From NCBI GenBank assembly GCA_000004985.1, contig GG738906.1: 64,000 nucleotides of DNA; one strand, 5' to 3'. Position numbers and translations under genes: made by a program. This document shows, piece after piece, positions 8,455 to 42,505 of this stretch (the stretch's first letter is position 1; every line of letters starts with the position of its first letter). Under the pieces are notes generated by a model. That model was not told where the DNA came from, did no database searches, and worked only from the letters and a program-made list of their open reading frames with translations. Origin of the DNA: Naegleria gruberi. Lineage: Eukaryota.

Positions 8455-10416
8455 ATGAAGAAACTCGCAAAAAGTGTACTGCTCCAATCTAAGGTTCTTC
8501 GTCATCAATATAACAAAGGACCAAAATTATGTGGCATTAGTAGTTTAAATAATTTTAAAACTTTTAGTTCAAACTCAGGAGTATTTAACAAAGAGAATGA
8601 TATTATTGAAAGTGATGAAATGGATGAGGATTTAAAACTTTCCCTCTTTGGTGATTCTAGAGGTTCTGATGAATCTAGTTCGAGGTCAAACTATGTTTCC
8701 AGATTGGGCAATGATACTAATGGTGTTTCCTATACAACATATCTTGAAAAAGACAAACACTTCCGAAGACTCACTGAAGAAGAAGTTTCAACTTTAAAAC
8801 AAAAATACAGTGATGTAATGAACCCTCCAACAATAATAACACAATATCCATTCGATTTGAAAACAACACAATCAACCAACTCTACTAAACCACTCGTTTC
8901 ACCTATTAACCATCACGAGTATTTTGCTGTTCTTGATAAAATCAATGCTAGAGTTCTTCAAAGAGGTACCACTGTCACTAAAGTTGGTGTAGCTGTGAGT
9001 GGAGGAGGTGATTCTATGGGTACTGCTATTCTTGTTAAAAAGTGGGCAGACTATTTGAAACAAAAAAAAGGTATCGATATGGAAGTGGTTGCTTTGATTG
9101 TTGACCATCAAATCAGAGAAGAATCAGAACATGAAATGTTATATGTTCATGAAGTGTTAACAAAAACAGTAGGGTACAAAAACGTATTTTGCTTCCAATG
9201 CTTATGGCCAGATAACCAAAAAAAACAACAAAGAATTGCTAGATTGAAGAGACAATTAATTATGTCAAGTGAATGTGTTTCTCAAAAAATTGATCTTCTC
9301 ATTTCAGGTCACCACAAACAAGACAATATCGAAACCATGATTCATAGAGTTGCCTTTTCGAGTGGAATTAATGGCCTTAATGGTATACCTTTGATTTACT
9401 CATATTGTGTAGCAGATGCCACAATAATGCTTGCAAGACCTGGCTTGGTATTTGATTGTAATGAACTTAAAGCAGTTTGTACTCAATACAATATCAAATG
9501 GGTTGAAGATCCAAAAAATAGTGATGAAAGAGAATTCAGATCAATTATTAGATCTAGGTTGGGACTTTTATATCAGTCTGGAGTATCACCTAGTAATTTT
9601 TATAATTTCTTATTGACATTGGGTGCCATTCGTCACATTATGCTTCGTGAATCACTTAACTTTTATAATAGGTATGTGAGGTTTGATGATGAATTGGGTT
9701 TTGCTGGAATTTATTTCTACAGTCTTGAAAAGACTGCCGAGTTTGTTGCTTCAAATGCTCTCAATTCATTAATACAATACGTTACAAATAGAGAATTTCC
9801 AGTAACATTGGGTTCTATTAAGAATGTTGTCAGATATTTACCATCAACGAAACGTTCTCTTGGTGGTTGCTTATTGGTTCCTGATAAGAAGGTTCTCTAT
9901 GTTATTCGTGATACTGGTCCTCTCAGAAGAAAAAAGAATCACACAACCATTAGATTCACTGATAAGGGCATTGTGTGGGATAATAGATTTTTCATTCAAA
10001 TTTTCCAATATAACAAAATGAATATTCCAGAGGAAAATATAACTTATTCAAAAAAGCTTAGCTTGGAAAAACAACCAGAGTATGATAATATTTTAATTCC
10101 AAATTATGATGGAAAGGTTGACACAGATCCAAATGGTATTTACAAAATTAGACCATTTACTGAAACTGACCATAAATACTTTGGTGAACATTATCCACTC
10201 ATGATGAAAGCTGCAAAGCAGTACCCTAATTATTTAACGAGAAGCTTCCCTGTTATTGAGGATAGTAAAGGTACTCTTGGTATTCCTTTCCTTGGTTGGA
10301 AGAGATGCGTCAACATTTTCTGGTACATTAAATTCCTTCCATCTCGTCAAAAGTTTGTGCCAGGTGAAGCTGACAGTTTGTACGATTTTGTTAAACTCTT
10401 TTCAAAGAATAAATAG
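8455..10416 (+). CDS. tRNA(Ile)-lysidine synthetase (TilS)-like PP-loop ATPase with an N-terminal organellar-type presequence
   Basis: PP-loop VAVSGGGDSMGTAIL plus the TilS signature LISGHHKQDNIETMIHR. The first ~45 aa (MKKLAKSVLLQSKVLRHQYNKGPKLCGISSLNNFKTFSS) are basic/hydroxylated and lack acidic residues. Confidence 0.7.
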   Translation: MKKLAKSVLLQSKVLRHQYNKGPKLCGISSLNNFKTFSSNSGVFNKENDIIESDEMDEDLKLSLFGDSRGSDESSSRSNYVSRLGNDTNGVSYTTYLEKDKHFRRLTEEEVSTLKQKYSDVMNPPTIITQYPFDLKTTQSTNSTKPLVSPINHHEYFAVLDKINARVLQRGTTVTKVGVAVSGGGDSMGTAILVKKWADYLKQKKGIDMEVVALIVDHQIREESEHEMLYVHEVLTKTVGYKNVFCFQCLWPDNQKKQQRIARLKRQLIMSSECVSQKIDLLISGHHKQDNIETMIHRVAFSSGINGLNGIPLIYSYCVADATIMLARPGLVFDCNELKAVCTQYNIKWVEDPKNSDEREFRSIIRSRLGLLYQSGVSPSNFYNFLLTLGAIRHIMLRESLNFYNRYVRFDDELGFAGIYFYSLEKTAEFVASNALNSLIQYVTNREFPVTLGSIKNVVRYLPSTKRSLGGCLLVPDKKVLYVIRDTGPLRRKKNHTTIRFTDKGIVWDNRFFIQIFQYNKMNIPEENITYSKKLSLEKQPEYDNILIPNYDGKVDTDPNGIYKIRPFTETDHKYFGEHYPLMMKAAKQYPNYLTRSFPVIEDSKGTLGIPFLGWKRCVNIFWYIKFLPSRQKFVPGEADSLYDFVKLFSKNK

Positions 10417-35715: not shown

Positions 35716-35794
35716 ATATTTTTACATTTCTGTTCAACATTTTTTAAATATTTTACAACTTTAATAAATTTAGAATAATAGCAATTATTAAAAA

Positions 35795-36175
35795 ATGAGT
35801 TTGTTGACACAAGATTTGAGTAAAAAATCCGTTTTTAATCTGCATAGTTTGAACAAAATTGATGGTCAAATAGGTTATGGAGTAATAGAGTGTACCAGTG
35901 GAATTATTCAACATGTAGGTATTTAAAAGAATAATTAATGATAAATCAAACGATCGGAAAAGAATGAAGGAAAATTTAAAGATCAACCTGAATTATTGGA
36001 ACACGTACATGGCATGTTGCAGGATATTAATGGACTGTTTACTTCATCCTCCAATGATGAATCAATTAAAAAATTAACTGTCCGTATTGAAAATGACTCT
36101 CAAAGTGGAAAAAATTTACTCTACCATATTTCCATATCTAAGAGCAATGTATTTGTTGTTCTAACAACATGCTAA
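35795..36175 (+). CDS. LAMTOR4: Ragulator complex subunit LAMTOR4 (C7orf59-like), missed by the ORF track; join(35795..35914,35963..36175)
   Basis: MSLLTQDLSKKSVFNLHSLNKIDGQIGYGVIECTSGIIQH | NEGKFKDQPELLEHVHGMLQDINGLF...NLLYHISISKSNVFVVLTTC aligns with human LAMTOR4 ([28 protein letters not shown]...LLVTVSGQRVFVV). There is a 48-nt GTAGGT..AAAAG intron. The ATG is in an A-run. Confidence 0.65.
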
Positions 36176-36255
36176 ATTCCTGTAAATAAAATTAAATTAT
36201 AATACATTAAATAATTATTAAATTTAAATTAAAAATTATTAGCAAACAAAAAAAA

Positions 36256-37852
36256 ATGAGACTATCAAAGAAACTTTTGAGCGTAGCAAGAATGCACGCC
36301 CAAGCTACATTACCAATCAACAGATGTTTCAATTCTTCTCGATACTATCAAATTGGTAGGTTTATAAAAAACTAAAAAAGCTAACATTCCGAAAGATATT
36401 GGAAAAGTATCTTCAACTTTCCAAATTCCTTCACTTTCTGCTCTTCAAAGTAAAACATTGGAGGTTGTATCAAAGGATAATAGTAAGGATGTCTTCATTG
36501 AAGCACCAATTTTTTCTGGTAAGACTTTGGCCTATCTTGTTCCAACCTTTGAATTAGTTTCTCAAGCAATCAAATCAGAGAGATGGGCAGAAAGACCAGG
36601 CTTCCGTGCCCTCATTGTTGTTCCAACTCGTGAAGCAGCTATTGCTGTTGGTTTCCAAATTGACAAATATATTTCATCACTCCCTGTTGAAGAACGTCCT
36701 TTGGCTCCTGTAACTAAAGGAAATACAGACACTTACACATTCAAGTCAACAAAGAAGGAAGGACACGAAATTATTGAAGACCACCAAGGATATTCCGCTT
36801 ATGAAAAGTCTATTACTCGTAGAGAAAATGTTTATGGACTTTCATATGCTGTTATTTGCGGAGGAAAGAGTATGGAACAAGAAATTACTATGCTTGATGC
36901 AAGCGAGCCAGAAATTATTGTTGCAACACCAGGCAGACTTTTGGACCACATGAAGAATTCTGATTACTTCCGTAATTGTAAGATTGTTGTTGTTGATGAT
37001 TGTCAACTCTTCAAGGGTGATGTCGAAGGAGTTATGGATAAGGTTTTTGAAAATATTCCACAAACAACCCAAAGAGTTTTTGTTGGAACCGCCGAACCTT
37101 TCAAGAAATATTTGAGAAATAGTGATAATGTAGAACTCATCTCATCTACTGAATCAGTTTCAAAGAGTGACGTTAAACAATCAATCATCAAGACACAAAA
37201 TACTGCTGAATCTTTGAAAGTTTTACACCAAATTTTGTCTCAAAACAAGCACAAGAAGGTTGCTGTTTTTGGTGAAAACTCTCAAATTATTCACACACAT
37301 TACTTGATGGCTGAAAATGGAATCTTTTCTCTCCTAATTGCTAGTAAGATTGCTCCTTCCAGATCATTGACAAGTTTTAGTAATTTTAATCAACAACAAA
37401 ATGGTATTGCATTCTGTTCAAATATTGCCTGCCAAATGACTCCTGATGTGGATTTGGTCATTCATTTAGGAGCTCCAGAAACTCAAGAAAAGTACGAAAG
37501 TAGACTTTCTCGAACCTATTCTAAGAATCAATCTCAATCTATTGTCTTGGCCTCCCAAATTCCAGACTTTTTGAGCAATGTACAAATTGTTCAAACACCA
37601 TCTGCATCTTCTGATTTTATTGCTAAACAACTCAGAGTTCCTTCAATCCAAAAAGTTAACGGTGAGAATTTGTTGATCTCTTTAATTTTGAGAAGACAAA
37701 CTACTACACCAGAAGAAAAGAAACAAGCTGTAGAGCAAGCTATTAAGGATTTGAAAGATTTTGGTTTTGTGGAATTACCTAAATTGCCAAAACAACAAGC
37801 TATCAAACTTGGTTTTGAAAAAGAATTGCTTGACGCAGGATTGCTGGAATAA
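36256..37852 (+). CDS. DEAD-box-like helicase paralog with degenerate catalytic motifs and an N-terminal mitochondrial-type presequence; join(36256..36355,36396..37852)
   Basis: Exon 1 (MRLSKKLLSVARMHAQATLPINRCFNSSRYYQIG) is joined through a 40-nt GTAGGT intron with a CTAAC branch site. Motif I is APIFSGKT (AxTGSGKT is expected). PTREAA and TPGRLLDHM are retained. Motif II is VVDDCQ instead of DEAD. Motif VI is SRLSRTYSKNQ instead of HRIGRTGR. Confidence 0.65.
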
Positions 37853-38056
37853 ATGACCATTTATTTTTTCTGCACACCTCCATTGTTGTGTCTAACCAAG
37901 TATTTGAATAATTTGATTTTTTCTGAATAATTAAGGCAGTTTATATTAAAAAAGGAATGTTAAAATATAATGTTACAACTGTTTTTATTAAAATAATTTA
38001 GATGATACCTTTGTACTTCATGTCAGATCCCTTAATATGATCAACCAACCATTGCC

Positions 38057-38274
38057 TTATGAATTGCTTTCAGCATCACCAACTGAGGTCAAACCTAAAG
38101 CATCTTTAACGAATTTGTCGTGAATTTCCATGTGAGCAGCTGATTCAGACCATGCTTTGCGAACAAATCTTCTTCAGTCTTGAAGTGCATAACAACATAG
38201 TCCAACAAGTGGTACACACAAGTTCTGTTGGCATCCAAAGCATTGATCAATTCAAAGAGCTTCTCAATGAAGTT
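38057..38274 (-). pseudogene. Hemerythrin-like (HHE cation-binding) domain remnant with an internal -1 frame disruption and no start codon
   Basis: Minus strand: ...KLFELINALDANRTCVYHLLDYVVMHFKTEEDLFAKH then a frame slip to WSESAAHMEIHDKFVKDALGL. This is the hemerythrin H..E...H / HF.tEE / H...H..FV pattern. The N- and C-terminal thirds of the domain are absent. It directly abuts the stop of the Zn2Cys6 gene. Confidence 0.4.
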
Positions 38275-38281
38275 TCATGAA

Positions 38282-40129
38282 CTAGAGTTTATTGTTTTGT
38301 CTTGAGAATGTATCTCTAATATCAAGCTCTAGCATTAAATTTGAAAATGAGGGTAATACAAGATCGTTTGATTGGGGTTCACTAATTTTTTGTTCGCTTC
38401 GTAAATAGTTTCCTGCACTGGATACACTTGAGATTTGAGAATTAAAACTAGATCCAATAGAATCTGAAATGGATGATGTATTAGAAATTGGTGTTGCACC
38501 GAAAGAGGAGACACTCGATTGAGAACCAATTGAAGCCAAAGATATTTTCAAAAGAGATGATGGTGAACTGTTGGAGGATACTGATGAAACTACACTACTT
38601 GGGGTAGCCGAACTGAGAGTATTATTCATTTGTCTAACCTTATCAATTTTCTTTGGTCTACCTCTCTTCTTTTCTGGAAGGTCAACACATTTCTTTCCCA
38701 ATCTTACACATCTCAAACAGGGCCTTTCCTTAGAGCATCTCTTGTGAACTCTTCTACATTCAGAGCATGATCTTTTCCCTTCACTAGTTGAGGGTTGATC
38801 ATAATCATCACCAGCTTCTTTTGAACTTGAAGGATAATAGTTAAAGTCCATGGTTTCAGCACTCTCATCCTTTTCAACCATTCCACTTTGGGAATCAAGT
38901 GCCATCTTTAACTTTGATGCACTTATTTCAGGAGCATTGGGTTTTGCAAATATTTCTGTATTCTTAATTGTAGATGGAAGTGGCTTAAAAGATTTATCCT
39001 CTAAACTCTTTTCGTCTAATCTCATTCTTTGGAAGGTGGTTGAAAACGATGGTTGGTGAGGAGACTCGAATTCTTCTGTTGACAGAGGAGTTAGTGGGGA
39101 AATTGTGTCCTGAGAACTATTTTCCCTGCAAATTGTATAGACTGAGAGCCTGTTTGGCTGATTCAAAGGTGTATTGCTTGGTTGGTTGGTAACATATAGA
39201 GGTTGGTGCAGAGTGGTAACAAACTGCTTATCTTCTTCGACTTTGTAGGAATGAATTTGGTGAGGAGAATTGAGAACGGGTGAGAAGGTTGTTTGTTGAG
39301 TGATTGGTGTTTTAAGAGAAGTAAGAACTGGAACATATTTTACATCTTCTCTTTGGAAGTGGAGAGATCCTCTTGTTTGAGGATGATAGATTGTTCTTGG
39401 ATCATTGGTTGGAATTATTCTATTGTGGTGAACAGGGTGATTGGAAGGTGTATTGGAGTGGACCACCTGTATAGTTTGGGTTGGGACAGAGTGATGAAAA
39501 TGATGAGCCTGAGCTGGCACCTGAGATACAGTAGTGGTTGGTTGCGAGTATGCCACGTGGGTTTGATGAAGTACAGTTGCTCCTTGTGGCAAGTTGGTGT
39601 AATAAGGCTGGTTCTGCTGAAGAGTAACATGTCCGTTTTCCAATGAATAAGCATTACTTGCTGAAGAAACAATGATTGGTTGTGGAGAGACTTGTACTCG
39701 TTGAGGGTGAATAGAATTTTGAGGTGTTGTGGTGCCATTTTCAATGAACCTAGTCGTGCCATTAATGGATGCGCTCAACAAGGATGAATTACTTTGCGTT
39801 CTAGTAGTTGGGTGGGCAATGAGAGATTGGCCACTTTGAATAGGTGTTGCTGAAGAGTAGATAGGAGAGCTAATATTGGATTGACTTTGAGGTTGGATTA
39901 ATTGTTGATGTGTAATTATTTGAGGTTGGTAATGGTGATGTGCAGGAATAACATGAATATTAGTTGGTGTGTGACTGATAACCTGTCCAGAATTTGGTAA
40001 TTGATGAGAAGGAATAATACCTGTTGATGATGATTGTGTTGAATAAACAGTACCCGGTTGTTGAAAACCACTGTTTGATGTTGCCATTCTTGTGTGAGCA
40101 TTTTGAGAATAATAATATTGAGAAGACAT
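38282..40129 (-). CDS. Zn(II)2Cys6 zinc-cluster (GAL4-type) DNA-binding protein with an adjacent AT-hook-like KKRGRPKK
   Basis: CSECRRVHKRCSKERPCLRCVRLGKKC fits Cx2Cx6Cx5Cx2Cx6C. A long Q/S/T/P/H-rich N-terminal region follows a typical activator layout. Confidence 0.7.
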   Translation of the reverse strand: MSSQYYYSQNAHTRMATSNSGFQQPGTVYSTQSSSTGIIPSHQLPNSGQVISHTPTNIHVIPAHHHYQPQIITHQQLIQPQSQSNISSPIYSSATPIQSGQSLIAHPTTRTQSNSSLLSASINGTTRFIENGTTTPQNSIHPQRVQVSPQPIIVSSASNAYSLENGHVTLQQNQPYYTNLPQGATVLHQTHVAYSQPTTTVSQVPAQAHHFHHSVPTQTIQVVHSNTPSNHPVHHNRIIPTNDPRTIYHPQTRGSLHFQREDVKYVPVLTSLKTPITQQTTFSPVLNSPHQIHSYKVEEDKQFVTTLHQPLYVTNQPSNTPLNQPNRLSVYTICRENSSQDTISPLTPLSTEEFESPHQPSFSTTFQRMRLDEKSLEDKSFKPLPSTIKNTEIFAKPNAPEISASKLKMALDSQSGMVEKDESAETMDFNYYPSSSKEAGDDYDQPSTSEGKRSCSECRRVHKRCSKERPCLRCVRLGKKCVDLPEKKRGRPKKIDKVRQMNNTLSSATPSSVVSSVSSNSSPSSLLKISLASIGSQSSVSSFGATPISNTSSISDSIGSSFNSQISSVSSAGNYLRSEQKISEPQSNDLVLPSFSNLMLELDIRDTFSRQNNKL

Positions 40130-40498
40130 TTTTCATCACCAAGTACTTGTGCTCCACAAGATAATGACTGTAAGCGTATTAAGGGTGATTTTTTGAACGA
40201 ACAATGTATTATGAGGCAAATACGTTGCGTCTTTTTTTCGCAGAATAAAGTACAGTATTACGCTGTAATAGGTTGTTCTTTTACAGCTCTAACTATTTTT
40301 CTCCCTTTCTCCTTTGAAAATTTTCAACTCCACAACTTTCCATAACCTAAAGCTTATAACATGTTTTAGTGAGGTATCGAGCACACAGTAGTAGGTATCT
40401 TGATCTGTGTCAAAATTTTACAAGCTGTCATAACAGGAAATAGTTATTTGATACAAATTGAAAGAGAATGATAATGGAATTTTAAAATTTTAAAAAAA

Positions 40499-42505
40499 AT
40501 GCAAAAATCTGTTGGTGTAGGAAGAAAAGTGTTGGTAACTTCCGGTTTAACAAGACTACTCCAACAACCAAAACATGCCAACTATTCAACCAATAGCAAA
40601 AGTTGTAATAGTAGATGGTTTGATCCTAAAGACTCACAACATATAACAACCCCGGTTGCTCTTTATAACACTCTCTCCAAGAGTAAAGTATCATTAAAAA
40701 TTGCTAAGCGATTATCGGATGTGCCAGTTATAAATTGGTATTCTTGTGGACCAACAGTTTATGATGATACACATTTGGGTCATGCTCGTAATTATGTTTG
40801 TCTTGACATTATTTATAGAATTTTAGCCCATTATTTTAACTATCCTGTATTACATGTTATGGGAATTACAGATGTTGATGATAAAATACTTAAAAGAGCA
40901 GCTGAGCTTGGAAAACAACCTTCGGAAATTTCTCGTAAATATGAATTTGATTTTATTGAGGATATGAAAAAATTGAATGTAATTCAACCTTATGTGTACA
41001 CAAGAGTAACAGAACACATTGAAGAAATTAAACAGTTTGTTGAAGAAATGGAAAAAAATGGTTTTACCTATACTACTGCAAATGGTGGTGTTTATTTCGA
41101 TTCTAAGAAGTTTGAACAAAATGATCATTACTATGGAAAACTTTCTCCAAATAATGCACAAGAATCAATTCAACAGGAACACATTGAACATAGGGAGGAG
41201 AAAAAGGATCCTAGAGATTTTGCACTTTGGAAATTCACATCTAGGGATTATTTGGGTTGGGAAAGCAAATGGGGATATGGTAGACCAGGATGGCATATTG
41301 AGTGTAGTGCCATGATTGACCATATTTTTAATAATAAGAGTGGTGCTGCAACTATTGATATTCACTCTGGTGGAATTGATTTGGCTTTTCCACATCATAA
41401 CAATGAAATAGCCCAGAGTGAAGCAAAGAATCATGCTCATTTTTGTTGCAGTAGAGAAACAAATTGGTGTAATTATTTTATTCATGTTGGACACTTACAC
41501 ATTAAGGGACTCAAAATGTCAAAATCTTTAAAAAATTTTATTACTATTAAGGACTTTTTGAAAAGGTATAGCCCAGACCAATTTAGAATATTCTGTTTGC
41601 TACATCAATATAATCAAACTTTGGATTATAATGAAGATGCCATTGGAGAAGCAATTAAGGTTGAAAAGAGAATACTTGATTTTTTACATAATGTTTCATT
41701 TTATAAGCAAGAATGTGAGGAAAGTAATACTATTATAAGAAAATGGAATACCGAGATTATCAATTATATGGAGAAACTAGCTATTTTAAAGCAAGAAATA
41801 CACAATGCTATTTGTGATGATTTTAATACTCCTACAATAATGTCAAAAATATGTGAAATAATTAACATTACTAATGCCCTTTTTTTCACAAATAACAATA
41901 TTCAAAAAGATTTCAAAGCTGCTGAACTTCTCGAAAACACCTCTTCATACATTATTAATTTATTAAATATGTTGGGATTACAGATATCAACCATCAAAAC
42001 AATCCCTTCTAAAATTGAATCAGAAGAACAGGTGGCTAACCATCCATTCACTTCTAGAATCATTGATACGCTAATGGAGTTTAGAGCTACAATAAGAAAA
42101 GAGGCTCTGCTCTCAGATCCAAAACAGACAAAAATCTTACAACTCATTGACGATTTGAGGGATCACAAGTTGAGAGAATTGGGTATAAGGATAGACGACA
42201 GAAGTGGAGAGAAAAGTGTTTGGAGGTTTGATGTCAGTAATCAAGATATTGGCTCAAATGTTGCCGACCATCACACCCTCAAATTAGCTCAGAGACAACA
42301 AGAGGTTGAACTAAAACTCTCCATTTCAGTTTCTGACTATTTCAAGAAAATACCCCAACACAAAGACAAGCATTATTCTCAATATGACCAAAACGGTATT
42401 CCCACACATGATGCTGAAGGACAACCACTCTCCAAGTCTGCTCTCAAAAAGTTACATAAGGAAGTAGAAAAACATGCAGAATTTTTAGCCAAACACAAAA
42501 ATTAA
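40499..42505 (+). CDS. Cysteinyl-tRNA synthetase (class I) with an N-terminal extension that may be a targeting peptide
   Basis: HIGH motif (DTHLGHARNYV), KMSKS motif (KMSKSLKNF) and the CysRS zinc-site context (WYSCGPTVYD...WHIEC). Confidence 0.9.
   Translation: MQKSVGVGRKVLVTSGLTRLLQQPKHANYSTNSKSCNSRWFDPKDSQHITTPVALYNTLSKSKVSLKIAKRLSDVPVINWYSCGPTVYDDTHLGHARNYVCLDIIYRILAHYFNYPVLHVMGITDVDDKILKRAAELGKQPSEISRKYEFDFIEDMKKLNVIQPYVYTRVTEHIEEIKQFVEEMEKNGFTYTTANGGVYFDSKKFEQNDHYYGKLSPNNAQESIQQEHIEHREEKKDPRDFALWKFTSRDYLGWESKWGYGRPGWHIECSAMIDHIFNNKSGAATIDIHSGGIDLAFPHHNNEIAQSEAKNHAHFCCSRETNWCNYFIHVGHLHIKGLKMSKSLKNFITIKDFLKRYSPDQFRIFCLLHQYNQTLDYNEDAIGEAIKVEKRILDFLHNVSFYKQECEESNTIIRKWNTEIINYMEKLAILKQEIHNAICDDFNTPTIMSKICEIINITNALFFTNNNIQKDFKAAELLENTSSYIINLLNMLGLQISTIKTIPSKIESEEQVANHPFTSRIIDTLMEFRATIRKEALLSDPKQTKILQLIDDLRDHKLRELGIRIDDRSGEKSVWRFDVSNQDIGSNVADHHTLKLAQRQQEVELKLSISVSDYFKKIPQHKDKHYSQYDQNGIPTHDAEGQPLSKSALKKLHKEVEKHAEFLAKHKN

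Follow-up and report, generated by a model that had tools for sequence, protein, structure and literature searches.

A probable hemerythrin pseudogene behind a Zn2Cys6 transcription-factor gene in Naegleria gruberi

The subject of this study is a broken piece of hemerythrin gene in a stretch of 64,000 nucleotides (nt) from Naegleria gruberi contig GG738906.1 (assembly GCA_000004985.1), hereafter the window. The piece lies on the minus strand, close behind a gene for a Zn2Cys6 transcription factor. We conclude, with a probability of about 0.9, that this relic is a non-functional pseudogene, truncated at its 5′ end and frameshifted, which would be a sixth and unannotated copy of the myohemerythrin-type (Nfa1-like) family of N. 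gruberi. By homology it is shown to derive from a stand-alone hemerythrin gene of 119 amino acids (aa), most similar to NAEGRDRAFT_36233 (EFC46050 / XP_002678794; here P0001). A preliminary description of the locus, made from the letters of the window, offered three readings of the fragment: a decaying pseudogene, the remnant of a former fusion between transcription factor and hemerythrin domain, or a mis-assembled 3′ exon. Only the first holds, and the relic is an ordinary pseudogene of a known family.

Results

The frame-disrupted hemerythrin fragment is real, with a similarity far beyond chance. In the minus-strand frames between approximately 38270 and 37990, hemerythrin pieces follow one another in order, as ...EKLFELINALDANRTCVYHLLDYVVMHFKTEEDLFAKH, WSESAAHMEIHDKFVKDALGLTSVGDAE and KQFIRQWLVDHIKGSDMKYKGII*. 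Family membership was scored on the frame-corrected conceptual translation only; joined in this way, the 93-aa sequence matches Pfam PF01814 with 27.4 bits (cut-off 25.3), and its best protein match is P0001, the 119-aa N. gruberi hemerythrin, with 87% aa identity (E 7.7e-45). When P0001 was compared with the window by tblastn, three collinear pieces in three frames were recovered (E 6.9e-34), and no hemerythrin match was found elsewhere in the 64 kb. A hemerythrin-like, frame-disrupted fragment behind the Zn2Cys6 gene and on its strand, as the preliminary description had it, is thereby borne out, and its closeness to the stop codon of that gene now has a measure of 17 nt. The limits first given for the fragment (38290..38057) have the right location and the wrong ends: homology covers 38264..37998, that is codons 27-119 and the stop TAA (93 codons plus stop), followed by approximately 24 nt of flank down to 37974, and blastn pairs 424-731 of the paralogue's DNA (L002) with 38264-37974 of the window. 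Likewise, of the start and termini said to be missing, the N-terminal 26 codons, start codon included, are indeed gone, while the C-terminus is present, as WLVDHIKGSDMKYKGII* in the third frame, just beyond the coordinates that had been noted.

The lesions were read from an alignment of the relic with L002, the DNA of the intact paralogue P0001, and divide the relic into three segments (A to C, Table 1). Homology begins abruptly at codon 27, so that codons 1-26 are gone, and with them the start codon and His26, the first iron ligand. Upstream of the junction, neither local nor junction-anchored alignment of codons 1-26 scored better than shuffled sequences; a resemblance of hemerythrin codons 15-24 to the last Zn2Cys6 codons, an impression gained by eye, was rejected because these alignments are also at shuffle level. 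Within segment A, an additional T (38216) and the loss of 10 nt between 38209 and 38208 together restore the frame, replacing GTTLKT by VYH and shortening the loop after helix A by a net three codons. Segment B is entered through a frame-breaking deletion of 4 nt (between 38153 and 38152), and segment C through one of 1 nt (between 38068 and 38067). The single internal frame slip first described therefore stands as a broken frame, but with two breaks (-4 nt and -1 nt) and, besides, the compensated +1/-10 pair. None of the relic's deletions is at a homopolymer run. The site of the 10-nt deletion carries a direct repeat, ACTTTG, which suggests that this deletion arose by slippage. In the homologous 3′ flank, the hexamer AATAAA is conserved (37989..37984).

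These lesions bear directly on coding capacity. The seven di-iron ligands of the family (H26, H56, E60, H75, H79, H107 and D112 in P0001 numbering) are incomplete in the relic, where six codons are distributed over three frames: His56 (38187..38185) and Glu60 (38175..38173) in segment A, His75 (38134..38132) and His79 (38122..38120) in segment B, in which Lys76 has also become Met, and His107 (38039..38037) and Asp112 (38024..38022) in segment C. With its ligand codons divided among three frames, the relic can give no hemerythrin protein or domain, whether by itself or joined to the Zn2Cys6 protein. An uninterrupted open reading frame (ORF) of approximately 119 codons with a start codon is absent from the relic, and the loss of the start together with two frame breaks makes it a pseudogene of the family and not a functional member. 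Two further ways of saving the frame were considered and rejected. Tiny introns do not account for the shifts, as the relic differs from the intact gene by deletions and so offers nothing to splice out, and programmed frameshifting or stop-codon readthrough would have to contend with a missing start codon, the need for two shifts, and a second stop 5 codons past the TAG of the Zn2Cys6 gene.

The disabling lesions are real and not an assembly error, because an independently assembled contig has all of them and one further frameshift. This short-read contig (L001), from a separate data set (ENA ERZ929261, PRJEB11402), is 99.84% identical to window 37099-40745 over 3.6 kb; a search of the literature for its project had no result. 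It carries every relic lesion seen in the window; in addition, the further frameshift is due to one more A behind 38010, and codon 118 (38006) reads GTC where the window has ATC. Of the five differences between the two sequences, three lie within 31 bp at the 3′ end of the relic (window 37979-38010; L001 2735-2766), comprising two single-base indels and one substitution, and the 1848-bp Zn2Cys6 ORF has one difference, which is synonymous. The sample behind L001 also contains the intact paralogue. The proposal of a mis-assembled real 3′ exon fails on the recurrence of the same lesions in the independent short-read assembly and on the deletions themselves, which leave nothing in excess for splicing to remove.

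An intact hemerythrin paralogue, which the preliminary description had proposed to search for in the genome, exists: P0001 is stand-alone, lies on another scaffold than the relic, and is without intron, its ORF being contiguous in L002. Together with the lesions present in two independent assemblies and the loss of the start and first iron ligand, it upholds the decaying pseudogene. The relic is 93% identical to the P0001 gene, from which it differs by 18 DNA point changes and a few indels; the two have in common an unusual His67 codon, a homology that extends past the stop codon and includes part of the 3′ flank, and one perfect match of 47 nt. In contrast to P0001 with its intact 119-aa ORF, the relic has neither codons 1-26 nor a start, and has two frame-breaking deletions. 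Five intact N. gruberi hemerythrin genes are on record, namely P0001, P0145 (three loci) and P0146, with identities to the relic of 87% for P0001 and approximately 76% for the P0145/P0146 group. Published surveys likewise count five (PMC2556348, PMC4919030), and the word 'pseudogene' is absent from both.

Other strong matches to the relic are single-domain hemerythrins of 118-142 aa, whose named sources are all Naegleria or Willaertia, and its nearest relatives are without exception stand-alone proteins of 118-121 aa. Nfa1 of N. fowleri, a 13.1-kDa myohemerythrin-like antigen (PMC11614482), and the myohemerythrins of Naegleria and Willaertia (PF01814) are of the same family and length class, and six of the seven ligand codons remain recognisable in the relic; unlike these proteins, it has no coding capacity, as its first ligand His is gone and the others stand in three frames. 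Naegleria hemerythrin is abundant as transcript and protein, and its mRNA is strongly down-regulated upon iron starvation (PMC7326272). With FBXL5, BRUTUS and the bacterial fusions of hemerythrin to chemotaxis proteins or regulators, the relic shares the general fold family only; it is unfused, and its type is that of the stand-alone, O2-binding myohemerythrins and not a sensor-domain architecture.

Two contigs of the N. lovaniensis assembly (L003 and L004, 10001-10360 in each) encode one and the same hemerythrin, flanked on both by matching genes (F-box/LRR, B-box/SPRY, kinase); the repeat is due to a segmental duplication or else to a haplotig. In Willaertia magna (L005), two hemerythrin genes are situated 9 kb apart in inverted orientation, at 10001-10357 (+) and 19400-19756 (-), which is another sign of recurrent duplication in the family.

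The substitutions on the relic's own branch suggest a history of function. As outgroups we used P0144, the P0001 orthologue of a related Naegleria as identified by flank homology, and P0002 in place of P0145. The derived His67 codon is common to relic and P0001. The relic branch has 10-12 changes of its own, of which 7-8 are synonymous third-position changes and 3-4 are non-synonymous (K76M, Q84K, V118I and perhaps M109K); P0001 has 2 changes and P0144 has 4. Under neutrality, 73-81% of changes are expected to be non-synonymous, and the deficit in the relic has a binomial P of 0.0007-0.013, depending on the transition and GC-to-AT biases assumed. Because the relic-specific changes are mostly synonymous when set against neutrality, the relic may be regarded as a once-working duplicate that died recently, having been under purifying selection for much of its separate history. 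The differences between isolates cluster in the relic, and the relic branch overall shows past constraint.

Genomic context

The relic occupies a 429-bp gap between two convergent genes, the Zn2Cys6 gene and a gene for a DEAD-box RNA helicase (Table 1). The window has a G+C content of 33%, and neighbouring ORFs of 464-1104 codons are intact in it.

Table 1. Coordinates of the hemerythrin relic and of the genes on either side of it
Feature	Position	Strand	Basis
Zn2Cys6 (Zn_clus) transcription-factor ORF, 615 aa	38282..40129	minus	ORF list; Pfam PF00172 29.3 bits; 100% identity to P0023
Spacer from Zn2Cys6 stop to first hemerythrin-homologous base, 17 nt; junction of 5′ truncation	38265..38281	minus	pairwise alignment begins at 38264
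Segment A, codons 27-67, first frame	38153..38264	minus	L002 alignments; tblastn piece aa 27-71
Segment B, codons 69-97, second frame	38068..38152	minus	L002 alignments; tblastn piece aa 64-96
Segment C, codons 97-119 and stop TAA (38000..37998), third frame	37998..38067	minus	L002 alignments; tblastn aa 98-117, 95% identity
3′ flank homologous to the 3′ flank of the intact paralogue, ~24 nt	37974..37997	minus	blastn, alignment, hexamer scan
DEAD-box RNA helicase main exon	36458..37852	plus	Pfam DEAD and Helicase_C; 100% identity to N. gruberi P0024; gene-order comparisons

Upstream of the relic and on its strand, the Zn2Cys6 ORF forms no part of it. It ends with a TAG at 38284..38282, has its next in-frame stop 5 codons on, and encodes a protein of 615 aa, of the same length as the annotated N. 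gruberi protein P0023 and identical to it throughout. The N-terminal 440 residues of this protein are of low complexity and rich in Q/S/T/H/P; the zinc cluster and the adjoining basic, Ser-rich stretch (aa 442-574) are the only part kept in any homologue. An exhaustive HMMER search (E <= 0.001) found 249 relatives besides the query, with matches only around aa 442-574. Among the best 149 of these 249, none (0/149) matched a Naegleria hemerythrin profile with filters off (best E 0.72), and a word-indexed search for Zn2Cys6 orthologues returned only the N. gruberi protein itself. At its C-terminus, the Zn2Cys6 protein has an LPSFSxL motif in common with its best homologue, P0155, which indicates that this end is native and not a leftover linker.

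The locus differs in the relatives of N. gruberi. A large WD40/EML gene comes after the pair formed by a small upstream gene and the DEAD-box gene in N. fowleri, in N. lovaniensis and on a metagenomic Naegleria-like contig, and an unrelated gene comes after the same pair in Willaertia magna. Up to a distance of 8 kb from the DEAD-box orthologue, all four loci are free of hemerythrin and of any relic, and the hemerythrin locus of N. lovaniensis has only the hemerythrin in common with the window. The absence of hemerythrin from the matching loci indicates that the copy is specific to the N. gruberi lineage. Scanning of metagenomes with P0001 for an intact copy beside a Zn2Cys6 or DEAD-box gene gave only unrelated loci, at 32-41% identity. 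Conserved gene order (window 35786-37852 compared with L006, L007, L008 and L011) stops exactly at the 3′ end of the helicase. Past this point, N. gruberi has the relic, the Zn2Cys6 gene and a cysteinyl-tRNA-synthetase-like ORF, where other Naegleria have the WD40/EML gene.

Discussion

The history that we favour for the relic has four steps. A hemerythrin duplicate would have arisen downstream of the Zn2Cys6 gene in the N. gruberi lineage, and would have been under purifying selection for a time, during which the +1/-10 pair restored the frame in the loop. A deletion extending from just past the Zn2Cys6 stop to hemerythrin codon 27 would then have taken the promoter and 5′ end, and such a deletion is probably what joined the relic to the 3′ end of the Zn2Cys6 gene. 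The -4 and -1 frameshifts would have followed, with one more still segregating in another isolate. In most respects this resembles the truncated, non-processed (duplicated) pseudogenes found in the 3′ region of a neighbouring gene, as the relic is a partial member of a multi-copy family with an intact paralogue, and has disabling indels shared between isolates along with polymorphic lesions. Its low non-synonymous relative to synonymous load and its many indels are somewhat unusual for pseudogenes of this type.

Several points weigh against a once-working duplicate. The case for past function draws on only approximately 11 substitutions, and the pattern they form would equally fit a recent fragment whose source, a functional paralogue, has meanwhile disappeared or was not captured in the assembly. 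Additionally, the tree is close to a trichotomy, with 4 sites grouping relic and P0001 and 3 sites grouping P0001 and P0144. The relic has four indels in its coding part and one in its 3′ flank (37990-37991), as against approximately 11 relic-specific substitutions; for slow neutral decay, this share of indels is unusually high, and we offer no explanation for it.

The main alternative is a fragment that was dead on arrival and came from a closer paralogue now missing. Here, a piece of gene from codon 27 to past the stop would have been copied or captured behind the Zn2Cys6 gene, for example during repair of a double-strand break, and would never have functioned there. Such an event would account for the sharp limits of homology, from codon 27 to approximately 24 nt past the stop, and for a site where the conserved gene order after the DEAD-box gene ends, and the many indels could all stem from one error-prone event. 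However, a copy evolving neutrally ever since its origin would not be expected to show the clear deficit of non-synonymous changes, except if its donor had been a more closely related functional paralogue, and no closer donor is present among the five N. gruberi copies on record. The frame-restoring +1/-10 pair also fits selection at the time it arose. We consider this origin possible although rather unlikely.

Reverse transcription of a 5′-truncated hemerythrin mRNA, followed by its insertion, would leave a processed pseudogene of the typical shape seen here, truncated at the 5′ end and with its 3′ end, flank and AATAAA kept, and the hemerythrin transcript is abundant in Naegleria (PMC7326272). 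Yet the homology ends without a poly(A) tract behind it, and target-site duplications are absent from its flanks, which leaves a retrocopy improbable; the parent gene is intronless, so the usual intron test is not applicable.

Error in the sequencing or assembly of an intact hemerythrin gene would explain the presence of frameshifts and nothing further, and is virtually excluded: a contig from different reads has identical lesions while differing elsewhere, which shows its independence, the deletions (10, 4 and 1 nt) avoid homopolymers, the neighbouring ORFs are intact, and the 5′ part of the gene is wholly absent.

A fusion of the Zn2Cys6 protein to the hemerythrin domain, past or present, would make the locus code for a transcription factor whose C-terminal domain senses O2/iron. 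Position alone speaks for it, as the relic is on the same strand and 17 nt past the stop. No continuous frame joins the two domains, since the ORF ends in its own TAG, meets another stop 5 codons on, and is followed by a relic that is out of its frame and itself divided over three. Moreover, the relic is closest to stand-alone hemerythrins and includes the homologous stop codon and 3′ flank of its paralogue, hemerythrin domains occur in none of the best-scoring 149 Zn2Cys6 homologues, and the Zn2Cys6 protein has a native end, with a C-terminal motif found also in P0155 and an annotated length of 615 aa. On these grounds, the relic of a transcription factor-hemerythrin fusion envisaged in the preliminary description is to be discarded, with next to no chance of being correct.

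As regards its present state, the decayed duplicate is most probably without function, judging from its sequence. By position, it is probably transcribed only as part of the 3′ untranslated region (UTR) of the Zn2Cys6 mRNA. The first AATAAA past the Zn2Cys6 stop, as found by hexamer scan, is the hemerythrin-derived one, 295 nt downstream. Against a shared signal stands the rarity of the hexamer, which occurs within 60 nt downstream of only 19% of the large ORFs of the window. As AATAAA is not general after the ORFs of the window, it argues only weakly for a shared poly(A) site and thus for a relic within the Zn2Cys6 3′ UTR. More speculatively, and with very little probability, the relic in this 3′ UTR could keep the element that lowers hemerythrin mRNA upon iron starvation, or could, via the convergent DEAD-box transcript, give rise to sense/antisense RNA that cross-talks with hemerythrin mRNA. 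By either route, a transcription factor would be wired into the iron response through capture of a pseudogene.

Beyond annotation, the relic matters little; it adds a dead, unannotated sixth copy to the five hemerythrins reported for N. gruberi. A false lead is also removed, as there is no eukaryotic zinc-cluster/hemerythrin sensor at this locus. For the N. gruberi lineage, the relic marks the point at which conserved gene order ends. For the family, it would show recent birth and death within an abundant, iron-regulated group of proteins that is tied to the biology of the Nfa1 antigen in the pathogenic N. fowleri.

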